Below are positions 8,278 to 49,893 of a stretch of DNA of 51,079 bases, in pieces. Position numbers and translations under genes: made by a program. Numbering within the stretch: position 1 is the stretch's first letter; every line of letters begins with the position of its first letter. Origin of the DNA: a virus (taxonomy: Duplodnaviria > Caudoviricetes); the IMG/VR virus record IMGVR_UViG_3300044724_010870, positions 1 through 51,079 of that record; one strand, 5' to 3'. Under the pieces are notes generated by a model, which worked only from the letters and a program-made list of their open reading frames with translations, was not told the DNA's origin and did no database searches.

Positions 8278-8284
8278 ATTACAC
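8278..8284 (-). promoter_or_regulatory. Putative phage late-promoter motif GTGTAAT, 7 nt before the gpI-J ATG
   Basis: Minus strand reads GTGTAATTATAAGGATG. The same motif recurs upstream of other structural genes. Confidence 0.5.
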
Positions 8285-8992
8285 AAGTTGCCGCATTCTG
8301 TACACAGCTTTTATTCTGCTACTCCAATGGTCTGTTATCATTTCTCTACAAGACAGTTTCTTAATATCTTGATGCATGAAAAACCCATTGCCCACATAAA
8401 CTCCTACATGCACACCTTCTCCACGTATACCGCTAAATATAATTAAATCATTTTTTTTAATTTCTGAAACTTTAACCTTAGTGCAATTCATCTTAACCCC
8501 TGACAATAGTTTCTTATTAGCTCCTTCTGATTTTTCCCACCAATGGTTTTTCACAGAGTTGTAAACATTAATGCCGCACTCTAATTTATAATAATCCATC
8601 ACTAAAGAGCCGCAGTCATTAAAACCTTTTATATACCTCCTACCTAATAGTTTCCGCGGCTTAAAAGTCGTTGGGATATGTAAGTGAAATTTTTCGCTAA
8701 CCAAACTGTAGATCAAATACGGTACCCCCATTTCATAAGATTGATTCCTATCTGAGTCTGAAGGCTCCTCACTGGCTTTGTGATGACTATGATATATTCC
8801 GAGCAACCTATCTTGTGATTTATATTTTAAAAATGACTTATGCGGTATGCTGAAATCTCGTTCTATATTATCACTAATGTTGGGCACGGAAATAACAGAA
8901 GGCCTATTATCTTCACCAAGAACAACCAATCCGCAAACCTCCTGGTGCGGCAGTGATTCGGCATGGTTTATAATTATCTTATCAAAGCTCAT
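8279..8992 (-). CDS. Tail assembly protein K-like (JAB/MPN metalloprotease + NlpC/P60)
   Basis: 237 aa. JAMM motif E(VCG)...HSHHKASEEPSDSD; NlpC/P60 motif GFNDCGSL...HVGVYVGNGFFMHQ. Position between gpL-like and gpI/J-like genes matches lambda. Confidence 0.9.
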   Translation of the reverse strand: MSFDKIIINHAESLPHQEVCGLVVLGEDNRPSVISVPNISDNIERDFSIPHKSFLKYKSQDRLLGIYHSHHKASEEPSDSDRNQSYEMGVPYLIYSLVSEKFHLHIPTTFKPRKLLGRRYIKGFNDCGSLVMDYYKLECGINVYNSVKNHWWEKSEGANKKLLSGVKMNCTKVKVSEIKKNDLIIFSGIRGEGVHVGVYVGNGFFMHQDIKKLSCREMITDHWSSRIKAVYRMRQLV

Positions 8993-17200: not shown

Positions 17201-18360
17201 TCTAATCTTGTAACTCTATCTGGGCTTATATACCTTAAACCATTAACAACTATAGGTATAATTACATCCCTTGTATAATCATAGCCATCATGACCTTCCA
17301 CACTATTTAATGTGCTTTGAGATATACATATAAATTTAGCATTTATATTATTATTATTTCTATAGTTAATACTATGACTAAAGTCAACACATGTAAATTT
17401 TAAATCTTTTTTGTAAGGAAATGAATATTCAAAATTAAAATGCTTCACTTCGTTAGAAATCAACCTATCACCCTTATGGTCTATAGAGAATATAGAATCA
17501 TAAACGAATAATTTCTCCTGCAGAAAATGAATAATAGCCTTAGTTTCCTTGTCTGTTCTATTTGTAAAGCTTACATCAAGCTCAAGGGGCAACGAGTTAA
17601 TTGATTCATTGGCCACATATTCATATCCGTCACCCATTTTAAAACTTTCGTTTTTAGCTAAAAAACTAGTCTTTGAATTGTACGAGGGCCTCCATACGAA
17701 ATCTTGAGTCCAATATGTACCGTCATCCATATTTGGGTGCACTGATAAATTAGGCCCATGAGGCTTGACGCAATAAAAATAATAGCCACTATTAGAGGCC
17801 TTGACATTTGAGAAAATTACCCCAGATGTCTTAAGCCCAAAAGCCGCCACAAAAATATCCATTTCATAAGCTTCATCCGGAATGTCTGTAGCTTCTACCT
17901 CTAAAGATAATTTGTAGGAATCTTGATCGTCAAGTTCCGAGTAGGCAATTAATCTAATTACTTTTCTAGGTTTTATTGGTTTAAGGTAAACACCTTCTTT
18001 GTTTTTAAATTTTAAACCAACACCAGCCCCAATTGAAGAATCTCCATCTATATAGTATTCTCCCTCCTCAATGTCTTTACTAACCAATAATGTGGTAAAA
18101 TTATCTGTACTCTTTACATTTTTATTAAAAAGCTTCACGGATGCGGATATACTATATCCCGAGCCCTTTCTCACTCTAATCGAATTAGACTCCCTAGATT
18201 GATTACCAACTACTTTTATCTCGCGATCAACATCGGAAGATGCGTTAGATGTTATTTCTTGGTAATTCTGAGGCTTTACAGAAAACAAAGAATCAACCCG
18301 AACCACATCGTGTTGTTCGTATGTCTCCTCCAATTTCCAATCTAGTGCCTGTACTTCCAT
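11278..18360 (-). CDS. Giant distal-tail/baseplate protein with two lambda gpM-like domains, a VWA domain and a long unknown C-terminal region
   Basis: 2360 aa. gpM-like 1 (~17330-17700): FVWRPSY...FKMGDGYE...SINSLPL...FTNRTDKETKAIIHFL...FTCVDFSH...NAKF. gpM-like 2 (~16060-16420): FDFRPN...GINSL...FEQRSDEEAEEILLFLESHLGFKSF...FYCPSWTH...ITATFIE. VWA: DVVFVLDNSRT...IIFYISD...FFPVGIG. Coupled to the upstream gene by TAATG. Confidence 0.75.
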   Translation of the reverse strand: MEVQALDWKLEETYEQHDVVRVDSLFSVKPQNYQEITSNASSDVDREIKVVGNQSRESNSIRVRKGSGYSISASVKLFNKNVKSTDNFTTLLVSKDIEEGEYYIDGDSSIGAGVGLKFKNKEGVYLKPIKPRKVIRLIAYSELDDQDSYKLSLEVEATDIPDEAYEMDIFVAAFGLKTSGVIFSNVKASNSGYYFYCVKPHGPNLSVHPNMDDGTYWTQDFVWRPSYNSKTSFLAKNESFKMGDGYEYVANESINSLPLELDVSFTNRTDKETKAIIHFLQEKLFVYDSIFSIDHKGDRLISNEVKHFNFEYSFPYKKDLKFTCVDFSHSINYRNNNNINAKFICISQSTLNSVEGHDGYDYTRDVIIPIVVNGLRYISPDRVTRLDTFALEPNGDGKFPNDLESVTKHFEGEYLKNDLSFLKKLELITDSKSQLTEDELKKLKTDNQWWNLHINLKFKKSQDLEVGDTVYIQVNSVKYSIFSVGLIRVKEVLSDREFVTEAIPYDETGSFNLSDIDVKNNGYDDIMADVLYQKIGRHPLDCLSSRVLFPDGFDGSTGLSKYVFNKNTQQSEKRKIITKDYRMFYLEEDVKEDDYYIYVSAARPVEYSIVGQVKMSALIPEVLHGRSSMYINSPNTVTAYPWNKNRDFDFRPNNVFTIPQTPEYIQAAFINYYNKKYNAGINSLGVAVNLSFEQRSDEEAEEILLFLESHLGFKSFSFQMPRPYLPGFENNIKEENKSTHAFYCPSWTHEVVFKNNHTITATFIESKSANLYEDSLQDSCVVGGNIFDPIVPHATCTLSSSAACSPSLGFVVDPSNQEFLIEPSSKETDVVFVLDNSRTISDQKVVVGDAAYTKYDLVVDSLKKIVTGYDGSKFPGTKALTAYSAGQINLEDDSLPGAGSNGVPPWPVTEYTDVVTGQIVNQSLISKVYKPEGSTASNKWLSTLGYDIDNLKRFNTAVEERGVNMGISLVGNQDAYEYPMDKDDNGDSIRILDLPDYPNSFDKKYIYDRLSAHLAKNDAGRNHLWALSDAVAQLFNAKRSNVVNQRIIFYISDFYFSEKEQDTINSIVSELKTGGRLSKRRPRDEVLKDFGIDEILQRYAYTESWRGGYSNLMNPDYSPGGLFSRENYINYLARVKTENDVLLPDDEAKIQATEDYNSLPYEDKNNPTWYNGEMPTMFFPVGIGASGEVSSKISQYAADYTGAPGEDSDLQLIHNVSAAEPRDEEGFRIMQLTEIASALTEDNGFQNLFSVTIYNCGPHSIKLHNTIIGFENDKSLAEYSTEVLKHGIVKDDDRYKFTRLKDGEHTIDEPMYGTGGQYYSDPKNEKMLTSNPSNIVWHSFNTEHEVYRQGKIHEIDGGWGRGTGYIDIVTDEGDYLILNESEPTFSSDKQGLDLGGYEILTSDLSSISSVKTSGVSNPGVMFKGAPIRAFKNAEEDLQIIDYNIAGEESASVGDYSHMPVLKSGESIDLFFGIRYKDVDRFEDRVQLFFHTEDMQDGKMDCYAQFQFNLEINDSRNTELVIKTGVEGAEQIENAEDALASTLKPTVEQISPAKNGLCDPYGLMQEIITKGISQNNNSFGYSLPVAQIIWDHVLANTNRPDIPNSLEKGWYKIFQLYDPFMRGLRPVEDNDGNVSFSLGSDAPFSHDPGNRPAWGCEGDAEVGEAARDIAIEAARRASLAYDGGNTKYAEITKPYKTDVYEAGLPSWLDSFKAQLTSDGPQTIYTYGTRASAGGTFSYGWNALPYSKIENLQQFFDCLFMEVFWFQMAPVFTPIFQREGKSTGLLWPQGSSWYGQPKQDQGIQIQNNFTPIASLSTSSSVTRYRVRCKIGGWTEVRSGAFQRSWGHNIRLQYKDSLFYWMMKHGWNSLKTCPGGILHEESNYWKNNIPSIVTNSKISEGAVYISSKRVGSTYDLGTKNFLASEAYDIGSIPKDKLFGPWAIIHPVSKFDGNVSDLFLYDQGRFSGVCKFAEYEVPYNSIQSIAVNAPVRVILRNSGEPESPSCGSGRTVFTRKESREKYGTEGIIFDGIGPFVLHSDDKVEGMEDWRPTGYNKDTYEFWDKYQISSAKQFLSVKGLADVTKISIQWLGSDYITWDRERDRWLIKQLPDDFCYDENGNRVSCSLEVSRSSVDPYRPKSIKSNIIKKGSFYQKYWDDTTETYRFIDYKNGEVQYGKVFGNEYGIDYNIYPGGKMPEPLEDPDLSNNEVDPNGLVAVENVDSEAGFYDSSNTFSGVKQACSKLKESLLIYYQDGIENDNFNDVIFIEGVKNNAILPYRRALREYPPYFFTGTISKLDFADRLEKEIEMHILLDENGSIRGLWENSLLPEVPSVGGEEYAQYNNLSGQESMFYKFMQDPDACINK

Positions 18361-20665: not shown

Positions 20666-23600
20666 TAACTAAGCTCTCCACCAACTCGTTTTTCTTCTCT
20701 TATTACGTCTAGTACTGCCGACTTAATTTTCATCGATAACTCTTGTTCCTTACTATATGAATCTCCAGAAGACGCGGTATCAACCTTTTCTTGTCCAGAC
20801 TGATCAACAGTAACGGTTACATTTATGTTGTTTGTTACCTGCCCGCCCCGTGCGGAATCTTTTCGGCCCATTGATTGACCTAATGCAGGTGATCCAGTGC
20901 CCTCATTAAAAACTCCAGGCTCCGGGCTTGATTGCTCTCCGATCACCCCTCCGTTATAGTAGCCCCTAACAACCCCTCCGTTCTTAAATACCCCCGGATT
21001 CTGCATGGCCATTCTCATTAAGTGAGGATTTTTATTAGCCAAACTTTGGGTAGAGGATTTTTTGACAACAAAATCTCCTGGGGTCATTGGGACAGGGCCA
21101 ACTTTATCAATGCCAGCGGGACCCGCAACAGTAGGAAACTCACCGTTTTTATTAATATATCTTAAGTTTTCGTAGCCAATTGTCGATGCAATACTTTTAG
21201 GAACAACAGACTCTCCCGCTGTAAGCATTGCAGGAACAGCTCCGCCTTGATTAAATTTTTTAAACCTTTCATCCTGGCCTGCGGCGGTTTTAATTCCACC
21301 CCAGATAGACTTCATTGATCCTTTAAATGTTCCCTCTTTGCCTCCGTGAATTGCTCCGCCAATGCCTTCCCCAAATCCACCTATGACTCTACCAACTCCG
21401 CTTACAGCCGAACCCGCAAGCTTTCCAGCCCCCCCCATTTTACTTAACTTTCCACCAGCTTTGCTAGTATAATCTATAAGCTTGGAGCCTCCGGCACTAA
21501 TCTTTTTGCCTGCGAACTTTATGCCGTCCATAGCATAACTAGCAGCAGTGCTAGCTACAAGACCCCCCACTTGAGATGCAAATCCTTTATATTTATTAAT
21601 TTTTTGGTTTACCTTGTCATTGTTTTTGTCTACATTATACTGATGTAAATCAAGAAGATAATCTCCATATTCAGAAATTGTTTGGTTCTGAGCAGTATAC
21701 CTACTGCCGAGCTGGGAGCTATCAAGCCCTAAATCTACCGTAGATCCCAGTCCCGAAGTTTTTAATCTACCTCGGTCAAATGTAGGCATCCCGCTGTTAT
21801 CCTCTGGTCTCCTATTCTTTCTACCAAAGTAACTGCTAGCAATGGTGTCTGTAGCTAATTGAGCACCACCCTCTAAGAGTGCTTCCATCCTGCTTTGTTT
21901 AGCGGGGATGGGATTATCAGGATCTATTTTTTTTCCATCCAATGTCCGTGGGTCCTTAAAGTAATCTTTAACCTCACCACCTTTGTCAAACTTCTGCATT
22001 TTGTCAACTTGCTTTTTTGGTATTACATATTCTCCGGCAGTTAATCTAGCTAAAACTTTATCTATGCCAGGGGGTCCATTAACCATGCCCCCATTATTAA
22101 ATCCCTCTGGTTCAGCTACTGTTCTTTGTTGAATTTCTGCCGTTAGTGACTCGATAGCTGTTTTCAGCGAATTTTCAGATAATTTGGATTCCACTAAAGC
22201 CCGAGTATTAGCTTCTGTTGCAGACTTCATGGCATCTTCCTCAGAGCCTACGCCAGTAAAAGCATACAACAACTGATTGGTCATTTTTTCAATATTTTGT
22301 TCTGTAATCTTATCAAATACAGCGCCCGCTGTACTCAGTAAAGCTCCTTCTAGGGCCTCGCCCGTTCCTTTATCTCCTGTAGATATATCCTTAAATGCTT
22401 GCGCTAGACTTGATTTAAATGTATCTACTCCAGCGCTAATAACCGCAGATGTATCTTCAGATGAAACAGCTAGCTCGGCCATCTTTACTCTGAGGTGGTC
22501 AAGCGCTCCAGCCCCCTCCATTGATGTCTCTTTTAGGGCTACTATTGATTGGGCTAGTGCTAATTGATCTTCGCTTTTACCTGTTTGAACAAACCTTGAC
22601 TGCGCTTCTCTGTTCCCTCTTGTTTTATTAAATCTATCAATGTTAATATCTGCGCCGACTAAATTGTCTAATAATCCCTGATCTATGCTCGCTGCATCTC
22701 TAGCTTGTTTTAGTTCAGTAAGTTTATTTGATTGCTCCAACAACTGCCTTGACTTAGTTTGAAGTTCTTGTGTTTTTATGCTCTCCTCGAGCACTTTTAT
22801 TTTTGATGCAGCTATTAGTGCTTCAGTACTTAGAGAAATAGTTTCTTGCTTCACACGCTCACCTGCCAAATCTTTCAACCCGTTAGTCTCTATTAATTCC
22901 TTTAATTTTGCTGCATTGATAAGATTTTCATTTTCCAAGGTAATACGCTCAGTATCGACTAACTCACTAGCTATTTGAGCTCTGATTTCTGCATTCCTCA
23001 GTGTTTTATTTTTTTCTTTAAGCTCTTCCAGGGATAGGCCCAAATTAGCATTCTCTGTATTAATTCTAGACTGCATTGATGATCTTAGGTTGGCCTCAAT
23101 TTCAGATGTGTTAGGGCCGACACTTCCGCCTCGTAAAACGGAAAGCTTCCTCTGACTAGTAAGCTCTGTAGTAAGATCCGACTCGGCAGTATCCCTTGCT
23201 TGTTGTCTTAGGTTCTCTACTATTTTTTCTTCGAATTCTCTAGACTGCCTGAGTAAGCTTATCCTCCCACTAAGAGCATTATTAATAATACTTAGATTTG
23301 CAGTTTCACCTCTTAAATTTTCTAAAATTACTTCCTCTAAATCACCTTGCTCATCTATTAGTTTTTGCAAAGCAAATGCCCCCTCGACGGTTTTCTGCTT
23401 GATGCCTAATTCTAGATTTAGTTTTTGCTGTTTTTTTAACTCAATCTTCCTACTTCCGTCTACATCTATTTGGGATTTTTTTAAAGTAGCTAATATTTTG
23501 GAGTACTCTGCAAGCTCATCGTCGGTTAATGATAATACTTTTTGTTGTCTAGCAACCAACATTGACAGAATTTTCTCTTCTTCATTAAGGCTGTCTCGGT

Positions 23601-26600
23601 TTTTTTCTATTTGTATCAACTGTTTTTGCACACTTCCTTCGGTATCTTTGAAGGTATTTTTTATATTATCTAAACTTTCTTGAGTCGGCTTAATCTCCAT
23701 GCCGTCCGGTAAGCTTTCATTAAATTCATTAACAGATTTTTCGAGTTCTCCTAAGTTCAATTTTTGTATGCTATCGATTCTATTTGCGAATTCTTTTAGT
23801 TTTTCGTCTTGTGTCCCTAATCCCTCTAGGGGACTTTTATTAGATACAAAAGTCTTCACATCCAATGTGTTTAAACTTTGTATGTATTTATCTCTGGCAT
23901 CCTGCTCTTTAGCGTCAAGTGATTCGGTTGCTTGCACAAAGCTCCTGTTTGCCTCAGCCTGAACGAATAAAGATTTAGATAACAAATTATTACCCAATAA
24001 AATATCTTGCTTAGACTTCTCTAAATCTCTATCTGCACTTAAGAGTTTTAGTCGGTTGTCTCTTTCTATTTTATTTATATCTATTAATAAATTTTCAGAA
24101 GCAGCTCGGTTTTTCATCGATGCGCGCAATTTTGTTGACTCTTGCTCGATCTTTTTGAATTCGTCTTTAATATCAAGTTTAGCTACGGCTTCTTTCAATA
24201 CTTTGTCAAGTGCTATGATTTGCTTTGTATCTAATTCTATCTCATTATTCGCCTCCCTTAGAATTGAGTCGAAATTTATTCTGGATGCATCGTCTTTGAA
24301 TTGCAACCTGCTTTTAATAGATTCCATTATGTCTTGAGATGACCCTACTGCCATAGTAAGGTCGCTTTTTTCTGCACCTTGCATGCCAGTTATACCTAGT
24401 GATCCACTAGACATAGAACTTTGTATGAATCTGGTAATTTCTCCTAAAGCCAGTTCTCGTTTGTCTTTTATTCCGACTCCCCTGTCACTTATTGACTCTA
24501 GATTTTCTGCTAAGTTTTTTCTTAATGTCTCGACTAAACTAAAGTTTGCTAAGCCCAAAGACAGCTTCTCAAGAGACTTTGTTACATCTTGTGTCGCATT
24601 GCTTGACTCTTTCAAGAACTGCTGATATAGCTCTTGACTAGCCGCATCTTTTTTGTTCATCTGGCTTAAGCCTTGGATTGATTCAGCTCTTTTCTGCTCT
24701 GCCTTTAATAGCGCAATCTTATTGCTAGTTAGCGCGGCATCTTCTTTGAGTGTGCGCTTTTTACCTTTAACCTCTAATGATAATATCTTTTTCTGCAAGT
24801 CTTGTTCTCGACTGACCGACTCTAAGGCCGCAGATGAAAGCTCTGATGATTCGCTTAGTTTTTCAAGTTTTTCAGCAGCTTTTTGCGAACTACTTTGAAA
24901 TTGATCCATTATGCCCTTGCCATCGCCAAAGAATTTAAAAGCTTCATTTAAAATTGTAAAACCTGTTATAACCTGACCAATTACAGGAGCAAACCTCAGC
25001 AATCCTTTACCTGCTGCCTTTAGGCCTTTCAAAAATCCTCCAGACCCCATGGTATCATTAATTACGGAGCTAAAGCCCTGTCCAACACTCATGCCCTTGC
25101 CGCCCAACAAAGAAACTCGATCCTTTTCAGATGTGAAACCACCAAGGCTAGACAGCTGGGAAGATATTTCCTTTGCAGTTAACATTACTGAAACAACATT
25201 GCTCGCAGCCAACCCAAATTCAGACAATGATTTTATAGCCTCATTACCCCCCTCGGCAAACTCCTCAAGGAAGCCACTAGCCATACTCAGAGAAGATTGG
25301 AGGTAGAATAGTTTCTGCAAGCCCTCCATGTCAGCACCCATAGCCTCTTCCTGGGCCCCTGAATGATCCTCTACCGCATTCGATGCATCAGTGGTTGATC
25401 TTGTTAGAGTATCTACTGTTTTGCTTAATTTGTTAAATTTTTTAGTTACTTGATCTAATGATGTCCTAAGCTTACTTGCTTCAATATCCTTTCCAAATGT
25501 TTTTTGTATGCCGGCCCCAGCTATAAAATTAGGAACCAAGCCTCTACTGGCTCCATGCTCTTTTGGGTTAATGCCCATACGTCTTGACCTAGCAATTCCC
25601 TGCCCGACTCCATTAGGCTCATCCCTGGTGTTTGTTACTGCCAGCCCTAGAGGATTTTTGGAGCTCTTTAATTGATTGCTTTGTTCAATCCTAATACTGT
25701 TAGCTGCAACTCCAGCCGCCTGCTCCCTGGCAATAGCATCCCCTAGTGGATTGGCGAAATTTGGGACAAATCCCTTAGATAGTATTCTATAATCCTCTGG
25801 GTACCTACGTAGATCTCTTAGGGTCTTTCTGTCATAAAACTGAGATAAGAATTGCAGCATAGTTTGCCCGGGCTTAAATTGATTTTCTCCCTCAGCATAT
25901 GCTCTTAAATACTCTTGATGCATTAAATTCTTAGACTTTATTATCTTCTTTTTAAATGGAACAGTATTATTAAAAGGGACTACATTTGCAAAGTTTGGAA
26001 TGAGGCCGCTTGATGCATCACTAAAATAACCTAAACTTCTGCCGCTATTATACTTGTCAACTTTGTCTTTAAGGTTTTTAATGAAAATGCCATTTAAATC
26101 AATCGTGCCTTTTCTGTCTTTAATGGCAGCTTTTGACGCATAATATTTAGCGCCCTCTCTTCCCATAGATGGGCCGCCAAGACCCTTTAGGTCTTTACTT
26201 GCCCTTGCTTTAAAACCTTGAGCTTGTTTATTTATTTTTGCAATCTCTTGCGGGTTGGTGTCCGTATGGTTTTGTAAATAATTAGTAAAATCTGTTAAAG
26301 TAAAATCATCCCCTCGAAGACCCCAGCCATTTGGACCTTTAGACCATTTAAGAAATTTTTGCCAGTAATGAAAGTTTGGGACAAAGCCTCCTGCATTATT
26401 TTTATTTGGAGAATTAAATATCTCCATTGCCTCTTTAGTTTTCGTCCCCCCAAACTTTCTATCCATCAACGACTGAACACCTCCTGTTCTTATAGCCTCG
26501 ATGTCTTCGTCAGAAAAACGTCTTTTTTGTCTTTTCCCGCTAGTTAATACTTTATTTAATCCTGATAGTTTGTCTGCCTGGAAATTGAAAAATTTTCTTT

Positions 26601-29600
26601 TTTCGTGATCTTCTTGGGATGGATGCCAAATTCCTTTTTCACCAGATTGTGCCGCATTTAATTGAGTGGCATATTCTCCAATGCCCACATATCTTAAGTC
26701 TGGAATACCTAGTCCTTTACGAACTAAATTTCTTGCGAGGTTTATATCGTTAAATAAACCCCGACCATATGCAGCTTGACCCCCGGGTACCCTTGTTTCT
26801 TGCAGTCTTTTAAGCCCGCTTTTGCCTTTATAATAATTGACTGCTACCTGTGTCGCCTCTTCACCTAAATCTTGGTCTTTTTCTATAGCATCAACACCAG
26901 CGAGCCTGTGGTCTATGAATGGGGGAGCTACAGCAACACGCCCAGCAACACTGTCCCCGTCTTTAATTTCAAGCTTCTGACCTGCTAGCACTCTTTCTTT
27001 TACAAAATTAGGAACAAAGCCTTTGCTCATTCCCCATTGCATAGCATCGTCCTTAGAGAAAGTTCCGCCCTCTCCTGTCCCGCTAATACCTAGCTTGCTG
27101 GCTAAGTTTTTTGCAGATTTTAAATTTTTTGAGTCAAGCTTCTTGCCCCCACTTACTTTGTTGTTATTCATCCATGTGGATAATTCATTATCCGAAGCCA
27201 TGCGCAAACTTTTAGAAATAATATTAGCAGGATTAATTTTCCCACTTTTAACTTCTTGTGATGGAAACTGATCCCCGAAAGCAATAATGTCAACAGCGAA
27301 ACTGTTTGACCCTTTTCTTGTTCTTGGATCATAAGTAGTGATATGTGTACCCTTATGCCCAGATGATACCTGCTCCCTATTTAACAAATTTTTAGTTTTC
27401 TGTTCGGCAAATTCTGATTGTGACAACTTGCCTTGACCTTTTCTGCCTGGAGGTATAGGCCTGATACCAATCCTCCTCTGTATGGTCTCCACTCCAGCCC
27501 CGGCTAGGGCATTAAAAGTTTCAAATAAAGTTTCTCCTCCTGTGATTTTACTTTTACCAGAATCAGAAGCCATAATAATATCACGCAGAGATGCCGACAT
27601 CAAGACACTCGGTTTTGCTTTCTTGAATTCCTTTTCAATATCTTGATAGTTAACACCTACAGCCTTAGCTATATCCATTGAATTGCCAAACAAGTTTAAT
27701 CTGGCCTTGCCAAATTTTAAGTTAGACCCAGTTAATTGAGCGAAGTTGGGAATAAATCCATGACTGGCATAAGGATCAAACCCGTGTTGACTCATGAATC
27801 GATCTTTATAGTTCCTTCCAGCGCTACTAGAACCCGGGGGCATTATTGCTGGTTGTTGCATGCCTGGAAAACTCTTAACTTCTTCCGCGGTATTATACAC
27901 CACTCGACCAACTCCTGGCATATTCATACTCTTAATGGATCCAGGACTATATCCTCCTGCAATTGCCCCCTCAATCTCCCGCCTTTTTTGAGCCCTTGAT
28001 GGAATGAAGCCAGATGCCGAAGTAACTACACCGTCTCCATCTAAATCAACCGGGCCGGGAGTTCTCGAAGTTAAATCAGGGCTTACCCCTGCCCTCATTA
28101 AGGGTCCAACCAGAGACCCAGCTAGTGCTTTTTGTTTAGCCATTGCATTGGTTTGAGCCTCTATAATCTTTAATAAAAACTTTTCTTGAGCTAGCCTGTC
28201 TCCTTCTAGATCATTTAGCCCCTCCTGGATGTGCTTGTTTTGAGATAAGACACCAACGATGGACTCCTCCATCTGCCTTATCTTTTCTTTTTTTGTCGTT
28301 ATGTTTAATACATCCTTTAAGCTTTGCCCGGCGAACTTTGAGACACTGGTCAGCATTTTTATAAACACTGCGCCAAAAGCGAATAATGCAGGACCCGTTA
28401 GGACATTACCTATACCGCGCACCAAACCCTTAGCAAAGGTGCTGCCTTCCTCTTCTCCCCCTCCAAGAGAATCTTTAATCCCTGTAACGGCACTCAAGAA
28501 TGTCTCTAGCATACCTCCAAGCTCTGGAGTTAATGTGAGTTTTCCTATGGCTTCCGCTAGCTCACTAACAGCAGTGGCACTTTGAGAGGCTAATGCCGCA
28601 ACTGTTTTATTTAATTGTTCGTTTTTTACAGCTGCTTCGCCTGCGGCTTTTGCCGATACTTCGGATGCCTGACTAAATATATTTTGATCTTTAGCTAAAT
28701 CTCTCAGTGCAGACCTAAAAATGTTAGCCTGAAAGATTCCTGCTGAAAATTGCACAACGTTAGACTTTTGAGACTGTGTTAACTGATCAAAAGTTTTGGC
28801 TATGTTCAATAGTATTTTATCTGCGGGTATAATTGCTCCAGCCAAATCCCTAACCGCTATACCCATATTTTCCAACTGCTCAAGGGATTGAGGTCTTTGT
28901 ATCCTGGTGAATATTGTCTTTAAACCATTACCGATTACCGAACCTCCTCGAGCTGTCGTTTGTTGCAGTGATGTCACTAGCCCGATTAAGTTGTCAAGTT
29001 CTACCCCCGCATCAATAGCAACAGCTCCAGTTCTCTCTAACGCATTAATTAAATCCTCAGAACTTACAGCAAACTTTACATCGACAGCAGCCAGTTTATC
29101 AATGATTTGTGTGGTGGTTAAACCTGCTTCGCCAAAAGCATTTATAGCTGCAGTTAGGCCTGAAACTGCTTCTTCCGCCTTAAGGCTGGTAAGTCGAGTT
29201 AATATGAGAGCATCATTAGTTCTTCTTAAGGTTTCTTCCATAGACAGACCTTGTCGAGAAAATTCTAATGCTGCATCTGCTACTTTACTAAAAGATTGTG
29301 CGGTATTTTTGGCAACCCCAAAAAGGCTGTGTCCGAATTTTTCTATACTTGAGCTTGATGAATTTAGAATAACATTGATATCAGCTAATGTTTTCTCAAA
29401 CTTTATGGTTTCAGCAACCAACCCCTTAAATGCATTCGTAACCCCATTGATAATACCTACGGAAGCACCAAAAGCTACAACACGAGCATTAGAGGCCTCT
29501 AAAGACTTTGTGAATTCATTCGCACTAGCAGTGATCCTACCTAGGGGCTGGGTAAAAGATCTTGCATTAACATTGAAGTTAATTTGCTTACCTGAAAGCC

Positions 29601-29758: not shown

Positions 29759-32700
29759 TTAGCAATCATTATCGTTCACATTCCAGCCCCATTTTGCTTT
29801 TTCTGCATCATCAAACCTTCTCAAACAAAGCCTAAATCCTAATTTCTCGCTCGAAAAACATGCCCTGGAGGAATATTTTTTTCTTGACGCAATCCTACAG
29901 TCGTCATCTTTATCAAGAAAACTGCCTCCTTTGGCTACTCTTTGATTGATAAATGTATTTTCCAGAGGATAGGAAACATCGGCTTGATAATTATCTAAAG
30001 TCCACTCATCAACATTACCCATCATATCAAAAAGACCAAATGTATTAGGAGTATATTGACCAACCTCCACAGTGGTTCCGATGCCTGTATTGTCATTATT
30101 TAATAAATATGTCACTGTATTACTGAATCCAAGATTACCATCGATATTATCGCCGATACCAACCAAGTCTCCATTATCGTAAACTATCATTGTATAATTT
30201 GCTCCACCAGATGCGTGCTTAATGCTACCTCCGGTCAATGTGATTTCCTGGAAATTAGGATACTTGTGAATAGCTCTTCCGTAATAACTGAAAAAATTAT
30301 GGGTATCAAAATATTTACCACATGCCCATAGTTTTGAATTCTCTCCTGTCGTTCCATCTAACCCCTTAATCATGTGGTGCCAGTATCCAGAGAAACTCAT
30401 AAAGCCTTCGACTTCATTATTGTGAGATATGCTACCTGTTTGAGGAACCTCCAGCCAACCCATGGTTTTAGTCTGGTAGGTGATAGAGTTGATCCCCACA
30501 CCTAGCTGCCCGAACCATGCAGCACCTATTGAGTAAACCTTGCCTGACCCACGAAACTTGGATGCCCCTATGGCGGTTGATTGTTTTCTTACCGCCGAAA
30601 AATGATCCCTGCCGGCAGATATACTAAACATAGATGGAAGGTTTTGATTTTTGACGGCCCAAGTACTTCCAGATCCAGCAACCCACCTACCAGAGCCAAA
30701 CATTTTACCATTATTCATCAACATCAAAGTACCACCAGAGCATGATGCCATTTGTTTCATATTTGTAGCTAAATATTTTGAATGAGGCGAAGTTATATAA
30801 TCTTTTGGTGGTAAAACCTTCCACGAATCATCTCCAGCAATAGTATCAATCCCAACCATTCTGTATTCATATATGTATATGCTAGATTCCTGAAAAAAAG
30901 GATGATCATAATCATTATTTTTTAATGGTTGATTATTGGTATCGTCAAATAAACCTAGCTGACCATCTCGATTATTTCCGGTTGCATAAAGCCTATCGTT
31001 TTTCACATAAAAAGTGGTATGATATCCAGCATGACAAAACTCAACCCCGCTTGATTCAATCTCGTAAGGGGAACTCTCGTACCGCCTTATTTCGAACAAA
31101 TCAAATTGACGGCCATCAAATATTTTGTTGACATCTAATATGCCGAAAGATCTAGCAGCACCAAGTCCCCAAAGACTTCCGTCAGTTTTTCTATACACGA
31201 GGTGATCTGGACCCGCCGAAAACTGCTCTACATTAGAATCTATTTGCTTTGGGCTGCTAATCTTTAGCGAGGTGTCCGGGTCGGCAAGTTTACCAAAAAT
31301 ATTAGCACCTACACCCCAGAGTGTTTTATCATTTTTAATGAAATATGTTGTGTTTGAAAAAGCTTGGGGCCTTTGCACTTGCCCACAAAGGTACGAAGTA
31401 CCACTGTAACTAGTGGCCTGAACCTCCTCAACATTGCTGGCAATAGCAGACTGCACTTGCTCGTAAGTATGTGTGCCGGCTGGAGCTATTGAATCACCGC
31501 TGTAGTATCGCGTTGTTGCCCCACCCCTGCATGCATATTCCCATTCGGATTCATTAGGCACACAATACCCCCAATTTTTAGGTATTAAATTTAAAGACCT
31601 CTCTAAATCAGTTAATTTATTACAAAATTTTGTTAAATCTTGCCAGGTTATATTTTCCACCGGAAGATTCTCCCCTACATTTAAGCTTGGGTTGTAATCC
31701 ATAAGGGATTCGTATTGTTTTTGTGTCATCTCGGTAGTAGAAAGATAATAAGCAGACTCGATCCTTTGAGTGAATTGCTTTTCGTTATTACCTCTGCCTA
31801 ATTCTGAGGCAGGGCTGCCTTGCAGGAAGATTGCAGGGCCTAACCTCACCATGTTTATTGGTACAGGTGTACCGGAGGAATCAGTTATTGATGACACTGT
31901 CCTTGTGTCGGGCAATGTTGATGCCGTAATATTCCCTGCAGAGTCTATACCTCCAGCTCCCCACTCAACCGTATTAATGGTAATTGTAATGTTTTGAGCT
32001 GGCATATTAAATGATATCTCGTCTGCCAAAGAATCTTCATCAGATATCGTAATATCACTAGAAGACCAAGATATAAATTCATGGGTGCTATTGACCCGCT
32101 TCCTTAATACCACAGCAGTGTTGACCTGAGTGCTGTATGATGTTATGACATTGCCCGATAAATTCAATGCCTGTGCCCCGCCCCCATTAACCACTATATT
32201 CACAGTATAATTTTGCGGAATGAATGATTTTGTTACTATTACATCATCATCCACCATGGTAAATTTTAATGATGCATCGCTTGTTCCGGGCTCCAGAGTA
32301 ATTGATCTTGAAGGGTTATTTTTGTATAACACTTCCCACCCTGATCCCAACGAAAAACCAACTTCTGTCGTAGCTTCTATAGTTACGGAATCTCCATAAA
32401 CTTTATAATTACCATCAAGGGATAATAGAGACCCACCCCCAGATGGCTCTGAATAAAGATATATGGCTTTTCGGCTATATACATTTGCGCGAATGCTTGC
32501 CGATCCAATTCCCGAGGTAAATGATGTAGTGGCACTACTTTCGTCATCTATAACTCCTGCTCCATTAACAACCCAGGACCCAAAAACAAACCCCGGATTA
32601 GGGTTGCATACTATTGTAAAAGTCGTTTGATCTGTAGCATCCACTCCATCAACTTGGTCTGAATTATAAATTATATATGTTTCGGAGTTTTCTCCATCTA

Positions 32701-34861
32701 TATTTATCTTATAATTTATAGGTTCGAATACCGCTGTTGCTATAGCATTGCCATCCCCTATTGTAACTATATAAGCTCCATCGTCTTGAGCCTTATTAAC
32801 TCCGTCTACATGGTTATATATATTACTATTAGATTTCTGAATATCTCCAGGTCCAGATAGTTCCCAACCTAGAAACTTAAAACCAATATTTGTAGAATAG
32901 TATATCTCAATTTTATCACCAAGGTTTACAGAATCTTCTTTCATCCTACTACCATCACCCGCTTTAATGTATGCATTACCCGCAGATGTTTCACTCTCAT
33001 CAACGGCGAGTGAATAATTTATGATTTCATAATTTGCATACAGTTTAGCATTTGAATTACCAGTGTTAAATATAGTGCTCTCAAGAGATGCATCCTGTAT
33101 GGATCCCGAGCCCTCAAGTCGCCAACTTATCCAATTGTAGCCAGGTTGAGTTAGGGAGTGTATTTCAATGTTTTCATTCTCTTCAACATCTATAGTCTTT
33201 AATTTATCATTTATATATTGAACCCCAGCATTACCTGCTATACTTACAGTATATTTACTCGCTTCATAGTAAGCTTGAATATTGATATCTCCGGCCCCGC
33301 ATGTTAATGTAGTTTGGCTGGAATCTTTATCTGATAAAACACCCTGTCCAAATGTCACTTCCCAGTGAGAAAATTCGTAGCCAGCCAAAGGTACAGCTTC
33401 TATATCAAATGAATCACCGATATTAAAAGAAACCTCCTCAAGCCTAGACCCTGTTGACAATATTACTTCTTCTCCTGGCCCGTATAACCTTAATTGGTAA
33501 TTGATTAAATCATAATTCGCAACAATTATAGTGTCAGCACTAGATGTCGTAAAAACAGTGCTTTGGGAATTTACACTTCCAAAACTACCTGCCCCACTCT
33601 TAATCTCCCAATTATTAAACTGATACCCCTCTTTGGCATTTGCCTGTACAGCTACTTGTTGCCCAGGGTAATAACTTCCCGAACCCGATTGAACCCCTGC
33701 GTTAATTGTATTTGAAGTTACTCCTAGAGTAAACCTTTTTTGCATAAAGGCCCCTTCTAGTGTTGTGTCTTCTGATATTGTAACTGTTAGTCTTTCTTTG
33801 AAAGCATTTTGATTTAATAATTCTTGGTCTGTGTATACCCCTATATCCTGACCGGCAACTGAGTCAAGCGAGCCTGACTGTATTTCCCATTGTGTAAAAA
33901 AATAGGGTTCTTTAGATGTTGCGTCGTAACCCGGCTTAGCATATAGCTGTATTAAGTCCCCATACTCATATCTCCCCGCACCAACTACACTGCCTTCACC
34001 TGTATGTAAAAGTGTTAAATTGTATTTATTATTACTAAATAATCCCTTGACATCTGTATCTTTTAAAATTGTTACACTAGTTGAAGCGCTTGTAATATCT
34101 AAGATATTTTCACCCTGCCAACCTATAAATAAGTTATGCTCTGACTGTGTGGCCTCGATTTCCACTTGTTGAAGATAATTGTACTCTCCTGAATTAACCT
34201 CGTTAACCTGCCCATTATAACCGGAAATATTTAAGGAATATTTTATCGGCTCATAATTAGCCGTCAGGGTGAGGTTTTGATTCATTAATACTTTGACTTT
34301 TCTCGATAAAGGCTCCGAAAAGGTATAATCGTCGGAACTCCACCCTGTAAAACTATAGCCGTATTCTATTGCAGAGATTTCTATCTCACTAAATTCACCC
34401 TCTAGATTTCTAAACGAACCTATTACTGTGCCATGTTCGGATATAACGGTAGTAGTAAATGTTTCCCTTATAAAAAAGGTATTGGTTGAACACATAGTGA
34501 TATAAACAAATGGCTCTTCCGAGGTTGTGTGAAACTGAGATGCATGCCTCTCAAACACAGCATAGACAGAGTATCTCCATATTCCAGGCTCATGCACGGT
34601 GTCGTACACTTCTAGCTCAGAAATATTATTGGTCACCTTGATAAGATCTCCATTAAGTCGGTTTTCAGTGCAGGCATCAATCCACTCACCGTTTTCGATT
34701 AAGCAGTCTTCTTTTGTTGTTTGCCCAGCTACAGAACATACCCCAGACCTATCTATCTTACCAATATTTTGCCTGTATACTAAATACCTAGAAAGCCCAG
34801 CTGTATGCTCTGGCTTCTGCCATGTTATGTGGAAGTCCCAAGATTTATCTGTATTAGTCAT
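29759..34861 (-). CDS. Large fibre/adhesin-like protein: Fn3-like N-terminus, ~10 InlB B-type repeats, FGE-sulfatase-like (CLec) domain split by an RCC1-like propeller
   Basis: 1700 aa. Repeats G-Y-x-F-x-x-W...A-x-[YF]. FGE N-part GSPASELGR...TEMTQKQY...NPS...LPVENITW...PNESEWEYACRGG and C-part VGQYTPNTFGLFDMMGNVDEW...RVAKGGSF...GFRL. RCC1 blades LWGVGANIFGKL, SAGPDH, YATGNNRDGQLG, GIGDNIDGNLG lie between them. Confidence 0.85.
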   Translation of the reverse strand: MTNTDKSWDFHITWQKPEHTAGLSRYLVYRQNIGKIDRSGVCSVAGQTTKEDCLIENGEWIDACTENRLNGDLIKVTNNISELEVYDTVHEPGIWRYSVYAVFERHASQFHTTSEEPFVYITMCSTNTFFIRETFTTTVISEHGTVIGSFRNLEGEFSEIEISAIEYGYSFTGWSSDDYTFSEPLSRKVKVLMNQNLTLTANYEPIKYSLNISGYNGQVNEVNSGEYNYLQQVEIEATQSEHNLFIGWQGENILDITSASTSVTILKDTDVKGLFSNNKYNLTLLHTGEGSVVGAGRYEYGDLIQLYAKPGYDATSKEPYFFTQWEIQSGSLDSVAGQDIGVYTDQELLNQNAFKERLTVTISEDTTLEGAFMQKRFTLGVTSNTINAGVQSGSGSYYPGQQVAVQANAKEGYQFNNWEIKSGAGSFGSVNSQSTVFTTSSADTIIVANYDLINYQLRLYGPGEEVILSTGSRLEEVSFNIGDSFDIEAVPLAGYEFSHWEVTFGQGVLSDKDSSQTTLTCGAGDINIQAYYEASKYTVSIAGNAGVQYINDKLKTIDVEENENIEIHSLTQPGYNWISWRLEGSGSIQDASLESTIFNTGNSNAKLYANYEIINYSLAVDESETSAGNAYIKAGDGSRMKEDSVNLGDKIEIYYSTNIGFKFLGWELSGPGDIQKSNSNIYNHVDGVNKAQDDGAYIVTIGDGNAIATAVFEPINYKINIDGENSETYIIYNSDQVDGVDATDQTTFTIVCNPNPGFVFGSWVVNGAGVIDDESSATTSFTSGIGSASIRANVYSRKAIYLYSEPSGGGSLLSLDGNYKVYGDSVTIEATTEVGFSLGSGWEVLYKNNPSRSITLEPGTSDASLKFTMVDDDVIVTKSFIPQNYTVNIVVNGGGAQALNLSGNVITSYSTQVNTAVVLRKRVNSTHEFISWSSSDITISDEDSLADEISFNMPAQNITITINTVEWGAGGIDSAGNITASTLPDTRTVSSITDSSGTPVPINMVRLGPAIFLQGSPASELGRGNNEKQFTQRIESAYYLSTTEMTQKQYESLMDYNPSLNVGENLPVENITWQDLTKFCNKLTDLERSLNLIPKNWGYCVPNESEWEYACRGGATTRYYSGDSIAPAGTHTYEQVQSAIASNVEEVQATSYSGTSYLCGQVQRPQAFSNTTYFIKNDKTLWGVGANIFGKLADPDTSLKISSPKQIDSNVEQFSAGPDHLVYRKTDGSLWGLGAARSFGILDVNKIFDGRQFDLFEIRRYESSPYEIESSGVEFCHAGYHTTFYVKNDRLYATGNNRDGQLGLFDDTNNQPLKNNDYDHPFFQESSIYIYEYRMVGIDTIAGDDSWKVLPPKDYITSPHSKYLATNMKQMASCSGGTLMLMNNGKMFGSGRWVAGSGSTWAVKNQNLPSMFSISAGRDHFSAVRKQSTAIGASKFRGSGKVYSIGAAWFGQLGVGINSITYQTKTMGWLEVPQTGSISHNNEVEGFMSFSGYWHHMIKGLDGTTGENSKLWACGKYFDTHNFFSYYGRAIHKYPNFQEITLTGGSIKHASGGANYTMIVYDNGDLVGIGDNIDGNLGFSNTVTYLLNNDNTGIGTTVEVGQYTPNTFGLFDMMGNVDEWTLDNYQADVSYPLENTFINQRVAKGGSFLDKDDDCRIASRKKYSSRACFSSEKLGFRLCLRRFDDAEKAKWGWNVNDNDC

Positions 34862-37800
34862 TGTTAATTTCTATTTCAAATATTGCATCATAAACATTAA
34901 ACCTATCAGTGATATCACCTTTGCCAACATTCTGCTTTAACTTAACGGCCAACTTAGGTGACCCTGTGCCTGAGCCCGAATCAGATATATCAATTTTTTC
35001 ACCAAATGCCGTAATTGGTTTTCGAAAATCAAATAGAGTTTCAGATTGCTTCACATTAACAGTAGACCCACTAGCTGTAAGATTATATAATTTAATACAA
35101 TCCTTGTTACCAATATCTGATGATTTAAAATTTTTAGAATGCTGCAATGTAGCTTCGTCATTTATAAATCTTATGGCCATCATCCCATAAGAAACGGCGA
35201 AAGGCTGCACTTCCGTACTCGTTCCACCCATGGCCGGTTGATTGGTTGAAAATGATTCGATTAATACCCACCGAGATTTATATCTATAATAAAGGAAGCA
35301 TTTTTTATCTGCGCCGATTATTGCCATCCTGTCACTTTTCTTGTCTTCTTTTGGGCTTATAACCACTTTCCATCCAAAACTTTTAGCTCCGCTAGGTGCG
35401 GTGATTTTATTGGCTCGCACCCATGCATATCCGCCATTACCCGAAGCAGTTTGATAATTAATATTCTGAGATGCGGGCGAGAAGTTTTCGGAGTGCAAAG
35501 ACAATGCATCAGGTGTTGTAATTTTTTTTGTTTTTTGAAATTTTTTCGCCGTTAAGCTCGCTCCCACTCTAATAATTTGTGCAACATTAGTTCTATTTTG
35601 TCCAAATGACTTTGATATTCTAATTGTTACATCTGGCCAAATTAAATCATAAGATCCAGAATTTTCACCTATAGCACAGCCATTATATTTAGTTAAGTTG
35701 GTTGTTGATGTAGTGCTTCTATTAGGAGTCCACCCAAAGTAATCATCTTCCTTAACGGCTCTGCCTTGTAAGTTATTTGTTTGAGATGTAAAGTAAGATT
35801 GTTTGCCTTGGTTTTGTATATAATAAACTATTCCAGACTTAGAATTAGTTTTCCACACCCCAGCTATTACATTACCAAAGTAACTGAGAACAAAATCACT
35901 ACCAATGAGCCCGTATACATCACTACCACTAGGCTCTTGTGATATTTTTAAGTCATTATTATTTCTTTTTGCAGTGGTGTTATTTGGTGATTTATTATAC
36001 AATGAATTTTTCAGGTTTATGGTAATGGATGCACTGCCTCTCGCTGGAGCCCTCCCGGAAACACTATCCGACGACCTGCTTTTCTTGACCTTGATATTGG
36101 ATGTGCTGATTGATATATTTTGAAACCCCTGAGAGCCGTTAAACTTTAAATAAACAGTCTTACCAGGTTCAACGAAAAATTTATTATTTTTCTCTTTCAA
36201 GCTATACCTCTCCCTGCCGAACTCGATACTAAAATTGCTATTCACCACCCCAGTGAAGTTTACATCAAGCTCAACCAAAATCCTTTGATATACACACTTT
36301 AAAACAACATCACTAGATAATTTTACTTTGTCCAAAATATCAAGACTCTCGTCGCCAAACCATTCTATATTTCCAGAATCTACAATCCATGATTTAAATT
36401 CAGTATCTGACTGCCCAGCATACCGCCAAAAAGGACCATTATAACTAAAATAATTCGGGGCTAGCTGCTCACTTCCTTTTACTTCTATATCTTTTAATTT
36501 AATATATTTTCCAGTAGCGCTATCTCTTATTGAGTAAGTCGGGCCATGTGTATACTGAAATTCATACTGCCTGCTATTTTGGTTATAAAAATAATAATCT
36601 AATTGTAGCTTAAATGCCTGCTCTTCATATGCTCCATACAGGGTGCCTCCCGAACTCATTAAAAATTCAATTTCATTATTAAATTTTTCCGCAGGACCTA
36701 TATTATCAAAAGGAGGGTTTGATCCTGTCCAGCTTAAAAATGAGTAACCGGGCAATGGGTTAGCCTGAACTTTCACTAAAGATCCATTGCTTAAAGTTTT
36801 ATATGAGTAAGTATGATTATCATCTCCAGATGAAAGATTTACTCCAGGTAAACTTTTACCATCCTGATACACAAGTGGCATGGCTACAATATTACCTTGA
36901 TTTTTAGGCACCTGAATCAAGAGCTCGTATATTTCAATGAATTGAGCTTCTACAGTAAAAGAGTCTCCAGCAACCAAGGTAGAGCCTTGACTAATAGTAG
37001 TTTCTTTTTCGTTAATTGAGTTAACCACCACAGTTCCAATATTAAGCCACTGACTAAATACAAACCCAGAAGGCTCGTTGGTTTTTATACTAACGGGGAA
37101 ATTAGATTCCCTGATTAGATACTTACCTGAATTTGTGCCTGTATTTTCAATAGTGAGCCCCAGCGCTTCGATGTTCGCATTGGCATTTGGAGTTGCCTGC
37201 TGTGTTAAGTCCAGAAAGAAAACCGGCTCAAAAATAGCTGTAATTTCTACATTATTCCTAATAGATATTGATGCTCCTGAGTTATATTTTAGCGAGCCGT
37301 CTAATCCGGAAAAAACATCAGATGTAGCGCCTTGAGTTACCTTCCATTCCTTGAACCTGTATTGGTTGCTATTTAGGGGTGTGGCACTTATATTTATAAT
37401 GTCTTCTATATTATATGTGCCTCCACCAGTAACACTGCCCAGTGTGGCATCTTCCGCTATTACTGTTAGGACTAAAGGAATAAATTCAAACTCAGCTTCA
37501 AGTTCTACATCCGTCGAAATTTGAAATGTTGGGTTTGCATCTGTGCTTCCATTATTTAATCCTATAGTAGTCCCATTTAATATATTCCACTGCTTAAATT
37601 GGTATCCCTGGCTGTTGAATGCTTGCAACTGAATATCTTCACCTATTTCATAAGGGCTATTTTTTATCGTTAAGTCCACTGCTTTACCCATATGTGTTTC
37701 CCGAGAAGATAATGTTAGTATATTTTGCCTTAAAAATACTGCAAATATATTAAGGTCACCTGTTAAGTCCAAGCTCTGTGGTGTGGAAATAAGTGGGTCA

Positions 37801-49020: not shown

Positions 49021-49893
49021 TTAGCCAGCCTCAAAAGTAGCGGTGACCGTAACATTTGATGCGGGCAATACAAATGTTTGAGTAGAAATATTTACAAACG
49101 TGAGATTCACACTGTTAGTGTTCTCGTCGGTCGCAGAAATAGATTCGAGCACATTGCCCTCGTCAGCGGCTAATGTTAGTGTGACTGTGTCCCCTTCTTC
49201 GCCTGATGAGACATCAGAAGTTATCGTTCCACTTGTGATATTTTCATCAATAGTTACGGAGTAAGTTGGTGCTGGAATTAAAGTAAACCCAGCTGATACA
49301 CTCACACTAGATCCAGGCATAATGAATGTTTTTGTAGACTCATCCACTGAAGTGATTTCCAAGGCCCCGCTATTACCGGTGGCAGATATAGAGGTGAAGC
49401 TGTATCCCTCATCAACACTGATTGTGAGGGTCACTAGTGTACCTTCTTGAGCCGAAGTTAAGTCAGTAGCCACAGAGCCCCCTGTAATTTCCGTATCAAT
49501 GTCTACAGAAAAGCTAGGAGGTATGTATGTTGCTTCTGCAGTTACATTGGCTCCAGGCATGATAAATTTATTTTCCGTTACAGTGATGCTTTCCAAAGTT
49601 TTACTGTTCAGTACAGACCAACTATCAAAAGTATAACCCTCATCCGGGTTCGCAACTATTTCAACTTCGTCCCCCATACCAAAGGGGCCAGTTGTGCAGG
49701 TTTTTTCTGTACCCCCAACGGTATCCAAAAAAGATACCGTATAAATTGGTGCCGTTGTATAGTCATATTCGTACACATACCATTCAGTTCCACTAAATGT
49801 TATAATTCTTTTTGTGTCTGTTTCAAATAAAGTATCCCCGGCCGAAGGTGACTCGGGCCGTGTCGTTGATAGGCATGTTTGTAATTTACTCAT
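49021..49893 (-). CDS. Small virion protein: short N-terminal attachment-like module + three InlB B-type repeats
   Basis: 290 aa. TTRPESPSAGDTLFETDTKRIITFSGTEW followed by three G-D/T-x-V-x-[IL]...DEG[YN]...F-[IV]-[ML]-P-x-x-x-V-x-V-x-A repeats. Confidence 0.75.
   Translation of the reverse strand: MSKLQTCLSTTRPESPSAGDTLFETDTKRIITFSGTEWYVYEYDYTTAPIYTVSFLDTVGGTEKTCTTGPFGMGDEVEIVANPDEGYTFDSWSVLNSKTLESITVTENKFIMPGANVTAEATYIPPSFSVDIDTEITGGSVATDLTSAQEGTLVTLTISVDEGYSFTSISATGNSGALEITSVDESTKTFIMPGSSVSVSAGFTLIPAPTYSVTIDENITSGTITSDVSSGEEGDTVTLTLAADEGNVLESISATDENTNSVNLTFVNISTQTFVLPASNVTVTATFEAG

Follow-up and report, generated by a model that had tools for sequence, protein, structure and literature searches.

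Can a phage tape measure protein also serve as a carrier of exchangeable enzymes? This question is raised by a 51,079-nt stretch of DNA of an uncultured, large aquatic Caudoviricetes virus (IMG/VR record IMGVR_UViG_3300044724_010870, positions 1 to 51,079; in the following 'the window'), a linear virus record with an estimated completeness of 45%, in which a single open frame encodes the very long protein P0001. By its core domain, its great length and the lambda-type tail cluster adjoining its gene (M-, L-, K- and I/J-like tail tip genes downstream, according to Pfam and PHROGs), P0001 is best assigned as a siphophage tape measure protein. An initial annotation, made from the sequence alone, had described seven short motifs in P0001 that bracket six unrelated segments and had proposed that these segments are injected cargo. 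We find that the array of motif-fenced segments is real and widespread, that related phages replace the cassettes bounded by the motif, and that the array is apparently undescribed in print. We further consider it about an even chance (a probability of roughly 0.5) that the array is delivered via the tail, that its cassettes are cut free at the motif and that they act as nucleases or modifying enzymes on the host or its defences.

The seven motifs, whose number and deviating first copy had been recognised correctly, follow the pattern G[FL][IV]P(NF/S) with glycines at aa 557 (GFIPS), 641, 887, 1098, 1225, 1303 and 1380. Six of them read G[FL][IV]PNF, a pattern that the window contains nowhere else in any of its six frames and that appeared in none of 2,000 shuffles. 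The array covers 25525-28017 on the minus strand; the upper coordinate first given (28011) had to be corrected, as motif 1 begins at 28017. The segments between the motifs (76, 238, 203, 119, 70 and 69 aa) agree with the sizes described before, carry a positive net charge in all six cases and are mutually unrelated (best pairwise BLAST E 0.22). By composition, glycine and proline make up 16% of the residues within the array compared to 5% downstream.

Table 1. Features of the tape measure gene P0001 and of one tail tip gene in the window (positions of the window).
Feature	Position	Strand	Remark
Tape measure protein gene P0001	20665..29679	-	one open frame, 3,004 aa; PF10145 match; 9 tape measure PHROGs
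TP901-type tape measure core	28753..29313	-	aa 123-309; PF10145, E 9.8e-25
Conserved hydrophobic, transmembrane-like segment	28348..28404	-	aa 426-444, ~110 aa ahead of the array
Motif 1, degenerate, ASGFIPSR	27994..28017	-	residues past GxIP differ between homologs
Module A, constant N-side bracket, 76 aa	27766..27993	-	in 119/119 homologs; predicted small helix-strands-helix domain
Motif 2, SHGFIPNF	27742..27765	-	pLDDT <50 at G-F-I inside a confident model
Cassette F1, 238 aa, likely PD-(D/E)xK nuclease	27028..27741	-	E759, D797, E809, K811 kept; weak structural matches
Motif 3, SKGFVPNF	27004..27027	-	pattern match
Thermonuclease (SNase) cassette, 203 aa	26395..27003	-	profile match to PDB thermonucleases, E 1.4e-10
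Motif 4, AGGFVPNF	26371..26394	-	DNA breakpoint of cassette exchange
Cassette F10, 119 aa	26014..26370	-	no family; recently common to distant phages
Motif 5, SSGLIPNF	25990..26013	-	DNA identity drops here from ~93% to ~75%
Cassette F3, 70 aa, small, basic	25780..25989	-	no family
Motif 6, SKGFVPNF	25756..25779	-	pattern match
Module B, constant C-side bracket, 69 aa	25549..25755	-	in 118/119 homologs; predicted helix-hairpin-helix, moderate confidence
Motif 7, SRGLVPNF	25525..25548	-	pattern match
Second, less conserved hydrophobic segment	24949..25005	-	aa 1559-1577
C-terminal GG-type modules	21025..22101	-	weak similarity to the lambda gpH C-terminal module (pairwise E ~0.001 to gpH 732-769)
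gpK-like JAB plus NlpC/P60 protein	8279..8992	-	Pfam matches at E 3.9e-10 and 1e-13; translation shows HSH and Cys/His motifs

With residues 1-650 of P0001 as query we obtained 2,146 proteins among 7,991 scored candidates and analysed the best 120 (query included), cutting them into segments at the motifs and excluding segments <20 or >1,000 aa as well as motifs past residue 2,900. The 120 proteins contain 818 motif copies (3-13 per protein) and 710 segments, which fall into 99 families (46 of them singletons) and 92 different architectures; together with 191 further open reading frames (ORFs) from viral contigs, 1,352 segments and 166 families were found. The variation in number and identity of segments that the initial annotation had named as a check of its proposal is therefore present, and a fixed colinear region in the homologs is ruled out. 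This variation does not extend to all six segments: direct BLAST against the 119 homologs detected the first segment (module A) in 119 and the last (module B) in 118 of them, but the SNase cassette in 24, F10 in 16 and F3 in 26. Because A and B are near-universal while SNase, F10 and F3 are patchy, we regard A and B as constant brackets and the four segments between them as cargo, so that the proposal of six cargo segments holds for segments 2-5 and has to be given up for segments 1 and 6.

A profile of module B matches 1,140 clusters at 50% identity, and the layout of the array must therefore be widespread. The best 150 B-profile matches include 132 new proteins, 105 of which have the tape measure core, and in all 95 further proteins having both modules an A-type module lies ahead of the first B. 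Five complete relatives have genome sizes of 194-214 kb. A tblastn search of the array against 50,697 annotated phage records gave no match and hence no cultured member, and eight matches were found in contigs of metagenome-assembled genomes (MAGs). As these MAGs belong to unrelated taxa and the matches are probably co-binned phage contigs, no host was inferred.

Several departures from the common layout were seen. An alternative module of ~80 aa in the A position (family G16; L012:8738-8980) has IPNF and VPNF inside its own sequence and gives no significant profile match to A (hhalign). Five proteins (P0126, P0131, P0135, P0172 and P0185) combine G16 on the N-side with B in mid-protein, extra motif pairs and, close to the C-terminus, another A-like module, and at least two copies of B occur in 8 of the 132 proteins. 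The motif itself may stutter, with two copies 8 aa apart in L157 (4958-5000 region), shortened IPNY copies following each other in P0125 and nine motif copies spaced 17-38 aa in P0195; [IV]PN[FY] copies within 30 aa of each other are present in 57 of 252 proteins, if copies inside the G16 module are counted.

Exchange of cassettes is visible at the protein as well as at the DNA level. The closest relative by N-terminal core (86%) lacks the SNase cassette and has the remaining cassettes in different order, and F10 shares 92% amino acid identity with five proteins whose N-terminal cores are just 65-67% identical. Counted within the P0001 gene, the DNA block that it has in common with the loci L154-L157 begins at nt 3291-3292, 3292 being the first base of the motif-4 glycine codon, and the DNA identity to three distant phages amounts to 24-37% upstream of motif 4, 92-93% between motifs 4 and 5, 74-77% in F3 and 66-67% in B. 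A contig of 485 nt (run X4), from a study that is not flagged as a possible source, matches 25905-26389 with one difference and passes into unrelated sequence at motif 4. None of the contigs had a joint that skips a cassette, an absence that carries no evidential weight, and the small-share runs X13-X16 yielded short pieces alone. On a FastTree tree of the N-terminal cores, 14 changes are required for the 23 carriers of the SNase cassette and 10 for the 17 carriers of F10; shuffled labels need more (means of 21 and 16, respectively, in 200 shuffles), and therefore some vertical inheritance exists beside repeated gain and loss. Thus related phages replace cassettes bounded by the motif, and the suggestion that the motifs are cassette-exchange boundaries finds support in the block edges at motif 4, the sharing of F10 and the X4 contig. 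As an alignment necessarily starts near a conserved motif when the upstream cassette differs, these data establish motif-bounded replacement but do not locate the crossover base itself.

The codons of the motif recur (proline, for example, is CCT in 235 of 378 copies compared to a background of 35%), which is why we consider the motif DNA a possible crossover point. This enrichment and the breakpoints mapping to motif DNA could also mean that the motif is a crossover site and nothing else, or that the array is removed from the RNA, the peptide itself being functionless in either case. We regard this as very improbable: in the 378 copies, from 191 ORFs, all synonymous codons are used at all six motif positions although the residues P, N and the first G do not change, and in the homologs the frame remains open through the array with catalytic residues kept. 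In agreement with the protein-level conservation that had been read from the differing codons of P0001, selection acts on the peptide, with some homogenisation by recombination in addition; a recombinase site does not fit.

What do the cassettes encode? The third segment is, judged from its sequence, a homolog of thermonuclease (SNase) with the catalytic residues kept, as had been suspected: a profile of six sequences matches thermonucleases in the PDB (E 1.4e-10), and the active-site motifs of SNase (DGD, R, D-x-x-E, YGR) find their counterparts in D909, R925, D930, E933 and R973. The Pfam family PF00565 gives E 0.082 for the cassette of P0001 and 2.5e-6 to 2.6e-5 for four of five homologous cassettes. 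The second segment, F1, belongs to a family present in 108 of the 120 proteins, and a PD-(D/E)xK-like signature had been noticed in one of the segments. In 30 sequences of the F1 family D151, E163 and K165 are invariant and E113 is conserved to at least 90%, corresponding to D797, E809, K811 and E759 in P0001, and this conserved E...D...ExK arrangement supports the signature. Structure comparison of the F1 model (VIA) gave FAN1 (Z 4.5, root-mean-square deviation 5.9, 112 residues aligned), VRR-NUC, MspJI and BspD6I as top rows, all four of the restriction-endonuclease fold, and the F1 profile found no match among PDB sequences. On sequence and model together, F1 is likely a PD-(D/E)xK nuclease.

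Of the 120 proteins, 118 carry one or more restriction-like cassettes, where the families besides F1 were assigned by eye from consensus patterns. Other homologous cassettes show weak matches to GNAT, P-loop and polynucleotide-kinase (PNK) families, the latter in PHROGs, and matches to CI-type helix-turn-helix and PGDYG domains also occur among the homologs. The labels ADP-ribosyltransferase-like, kinase-like and HAD stem from patterns seen by eye and known signatures, apart from the weak PNK-family PHROG matches, and a three-sequence profile of the ADP-ribosyltransferase-like family gave no match in the PDB. Within P0001, Pfam found nothing in the six segments but the weak SNase match and PHROGs found none, F10 and F3 included. 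Nucleases as a main cargo type are thus supported by the sequences and models. As a side observation, the locus L266:5369-5998 has the F10 cassette in tandem duplicate, with one copy internally shortened.

Independent folding, an expectation of the cargo proposal, is supported by the predicted structures of the three units modelled (A, F1 and B), with the motif in a low-confidence linker. In the joint model of A and F1 (mean pLDDT, the model's own confidence measure, 86.6) the two form separate units; blocks of A reach pLDDT values of 82-95 over residues 21-90, whereas the G-F-I of motif 2 remains below 50. The model of B has a mean pLDDT of 64, its best structural match (VIA) a Z of 2.3, and its profile no match among PDB sequences; the ESM Atlas gave no usable match for F1 or B. 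Neither A nor B thus has a clear fold match; by eye, a short G-x-V-x-N-x-x-E pattern is common to the two. An intein or other Hint element was rejected as an identity of the brackets. Such elements are marked by an all-beta Hint domain, an N-terminal Cys or Ser and a C-terminal His-Asn; A and B are predicted to be small alpha/beta units, P0001 is without Cys, and B ends in H-G-A before the motif.

More generally, the whole unit of A, cargo and B might be removed from the ruler at assembly, by an intein-like process or by a protease, to act in the producing cell or to be packaged separately, and it may have begun, at its core, as a selfish nuclease element to which passengers were added later. 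A minimal form with a single inner segment, mostly of restriction-like families, is indeed found in 53 of the 91 locus ORFs that contain A and B together, and homing nucleases are reported to invade the tape measure genes of ICP1, there as introns (PMC10055350). Removal would also dispose of the large differences in array length (~470 to 2,200 aa across relatives), which would shift the tail length by up to ~250 nm at the 0.145 nm of tail per tape measure residue reported for TP901-1 (PMC5099701). Nevertheless we hold this explanation to be improbable. Neither the model of A nor that of B has an all-beta fold of the Hint kind, and cargo resembling kinases, GNAT enzymes and phosphatases does not belong to a homing apparatus. 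The arrays hold 7 Cys in 141,456 residues, as few as the rest of these proteins (other ORFs: ~0.8%; P0001 and the tape measures of T5 and lambda: 0 each), which fits a fate shared with the rest of the tape measure. Longer arrays also go with longer C-terminal parts (Spearman 0.58 for 96 homologs with intact C-termini, uncorrected for kinship). For P0001 itself, calculation predicts a tail of ~435 nm if the array counts and of ~315 nm if it is excluded.

The position of the array relative to hydrophobic segments bears on its delivery. A hydropathy peak at aa 395-470, ahead of the array, is found in 119 of the 120 proteins, compared to a peak inside the array in 4 of 120, and the segment at aa 426-444 would, by its sequence, insert in the membrane. 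Past the last motif, a peak of at least 1.2 occurs within 450 aa in 72 of 115 proteins compared to 10-14 of 115 in two control windows. In TP901-1, a cytoplasmic domain has been modelled beside two hydrophobic regions (PMC5099701).

According to the reading that we favour, the array would be packaged, extended, inside the tail; on ejection the cassettes would enter the cytoplasm of the host, lying on that side of the hydrophobic segment, and refold there. Cutting at the motif peptide would then release them, and the freed nucleases and modifying enzymes could act against the host or host defences. The motif would have a dual role, as a signal within the protein and, through its recurring codons, as a short DNA crossover point. 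Delivery is supported by the tape measure of phage P23-45, which carries an active RNA polymerase (PMC10770324); a cytoplasmic location is suggested because the array sits right behind the conserved hydrophobic segment, and cleavage because the near-invariant P-N-[FY] sits in an unstructured linker at every boundary. By its domains alone, the gpK-like JAB-NlpC/P60 protein encoded downstream is a candidate protease. Tentatively, we extend this picture to a large group of ~200-kb uncultured aquatic siphophages, in which the tape measure could be a reloadable magazine, the motif both protease site and crossover point, and A and B a processing or loading device.

The cassettes might instead be delivered and never cut, remaining tethered on a cytoplasmic loop of a membrane-inserted tape measure channel, beside the incoming DNA; the motif would then be a docking, threading or chain-registering signal, with a chaperone, the tail tube, module A or B, or neighbouring chains as possible partners. 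The P23-45 polymerase has been proposed to act while associated with the pore (PMC10770324), and the array has a conserved hydrophobic segment on one side and a partly conserved one on the other. Furthermore, IPNF and VPNF inside the G16 module are easier to reconcile with a binding strand than with a cut site, short stutters of the motif occur, and no protease has been linked to the motif. On the other hand, the motif lies in a low-confidence, unpacked stretch in both models, the near-invariant P-N-[FY] at each boundary, regardless of the cassette, also resembles a protease site, and cargo resembling kinases, GNAT enzymes and ADP-ribosyltransferases (these last recognised by eye) would meet more targets if free. 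Weighing these points, we find tethering rather unlikely.

A number of observations speak against release of the cassettes at the motif and their action as nucleases. The cut in the T5 tape measure pb2 has been reported after R1127 (PMC10038345), where the sequence reads SFVPR/AEGG (cut at the slash), but the motif profile scores this site at -7.7 bits, rank 3 in pb2, compared to 25-32 bits for full motifs. Moreover, whether T5 pb2 is cut at R1127 or at V1148 is under dispute (PMC11937520), the cut site of lambda is described as unmapped and its protease as unknown (PMC12617516), and A-x-G-G is present in only 164 of 1,478 motif copies. Since all exact motif-pattern matches in the complete 214-kb relative G001 (7 of 7) lie inside the tape measure gene, the motif is not a general maturation site of these virions. 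Among the invariant residues of A and B no catalytic triad was seen, and comparison of A, B, the G16 module and the lambda-like C-terminal modules with each other (hhalign) gave no significant profile match beyond the motif. The second hydrophobic segment is conserved only partly. For F1, the fold match is weak, with no row at Z of 5 or more, and Foldseek returned nothing at E 0.001; most cassette families are without a library match. Finally, the phage's own DNA would have to escape the nucleases carried.

How does the array compare with known systems? It resembles the polyvalent proteins of phages and conjugative elements, which have several enzyme domains per chain and for which delivery together with DNA and simultaneous action on several targets have been proposed (Iyer et al. 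2017, PMC5512222). Like these, the array unites unrelated enzyme domains in one polypeptide of variable architecture, and it contains at least two unrelated enzymatic or DNA-binding domains (SNase and the likely PD-(D/E)xK nuclease in P0001), with 92 architectures among the 120 proteins. Unlike polyvalent proteins as described there, which are capsid-packaged or linked to type IV secretion systems (T4SS), with processing ascribed to MPTase domains (PMC5512222), it has the tape measure as carrier, a peptide fence around each domain and the constant brackets A and B; the main text of that survey makes no mention of tape measure or PNF. Pfam scans of P0001 and 11 of the 119 homologs detected no hallmark domain such as MPTase, of which divergent copies could escape such scans, and the gene context is that of the tail.

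Immunity genes accompany polymorphic toxin systems, whereas the genes flanking P0001 are, judged by size, not small immunity-like ORFs. Toxin systems and array both have exchangeable effector domains on a constant delivery scaffold, but polymorphic toxins are described as varying mostly in the C-terminal toxin domain, while here several internal cassettes vary (PMC5512222). Among tape measures, gp96 of P23-45 is likewise a giant protein, fused to an active virion RNA polymerase that is needed in the cytoplasm; as far as the published account goes, it has one fixed N-terminal enzyme and no repeated delimiter or exchangeable array (PMC10770324). The tape measures of T5 and lambda (pb2 and gpH) resemble P0001 in the lambda-type tail tip, and both are cut, as P0001 may be, with an enzymatic piece proposed to be split off in T5; in the accounts cited they have one C-terminal cut by an unknown protease, in contrast to a motif at every boundary here (PMC10038345, PMC12617516). 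ICP1 also has variable nuclease genes within its tape measure gene, encoded in introns as homing endonucleases, but there the gene is interrupted and splicing takes the inserts out of the RNA (PMC10055350), whereas the cassettes of P0001 are in frame and fenced by peptides.

Our literature search, which covered few subscription papers and no supplements, returned no description of the array, and searches with the motif strings no phage paper by title. The array is thus a polyvalent-protein-like array in a tape measure, its known parts being the enzyme-bearing tape measure and the polyvalent cargo, and its new part the peptide fence with constant brackets. If cutting and delivery hold, it would come close to a new category, and the tail lumen would be an added route by which ready-made enzymes enter the cell ahead of phage gene expression. 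The cassette families, numbering at least 99, or 166 once the extra loci are included, and mostly without library matches, are candidate host-takeover or anti-defence proteins, and the repeated motif provides a handle on how, and by what, tape measure proteins are cut, which is described as unknown for lambda (PMC12617516). Should the reloadable-magazine picture be true, the array would amount to a programmable effector polyprotein that the tail delivers and for which no counterpart has been described, and it could point towards the protease that matures tape measures. Engineering of phages in laboratory strains might also make use of a tape measure with a natural plug-in site.

Some further features of the gene, its relatives and its surroundings deserve mention. 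The three GG-type C-terminal modules of P0001 are related to each other (hhalign 99%), and a profile of its C-terminal 511 aa found no match in PDB sequences. One motif-pattern match outside a tape measure gene was noted in a relative (G004:C1:37663-37680), with no ORF of at least 150 aa that carries it among those listed. In a 210,818-bp contig within a MAG (L132), the related tape measure gene is spread over several frames, possibly through long-read errors. G001 (L344, L346, L339) has almost no library matches for its head and tail tube genes, and encodes a ClpB-like ATPase, Hsp20, DUF1501, PhoH, a sigma-70-like protein, DNA polymerase III alpha and two UvdE homologs; DUF1501 we take to be typical of Planctomycetota and Verrucomicrobiota, as a hint at the host only. 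In the window, the tail tip genes downstream of P0001 include a very large gpM-like protein (11278-18360, minus strand, 2,360 aa, two matches) and a fused gpI/gpJ-like protein (1545-8270, minus strand, 2,241 aa), both according to Pfam and PHROGs. Pfam further detected InlB B-repeats in large proteins at 29759-34861, 34854-40991 and 49021-49893 (minus strand), the first of which additionally has FGE-sulfatase-like and RCC1-like domains; by these repeats they are probable adhesion or fibre proteins.

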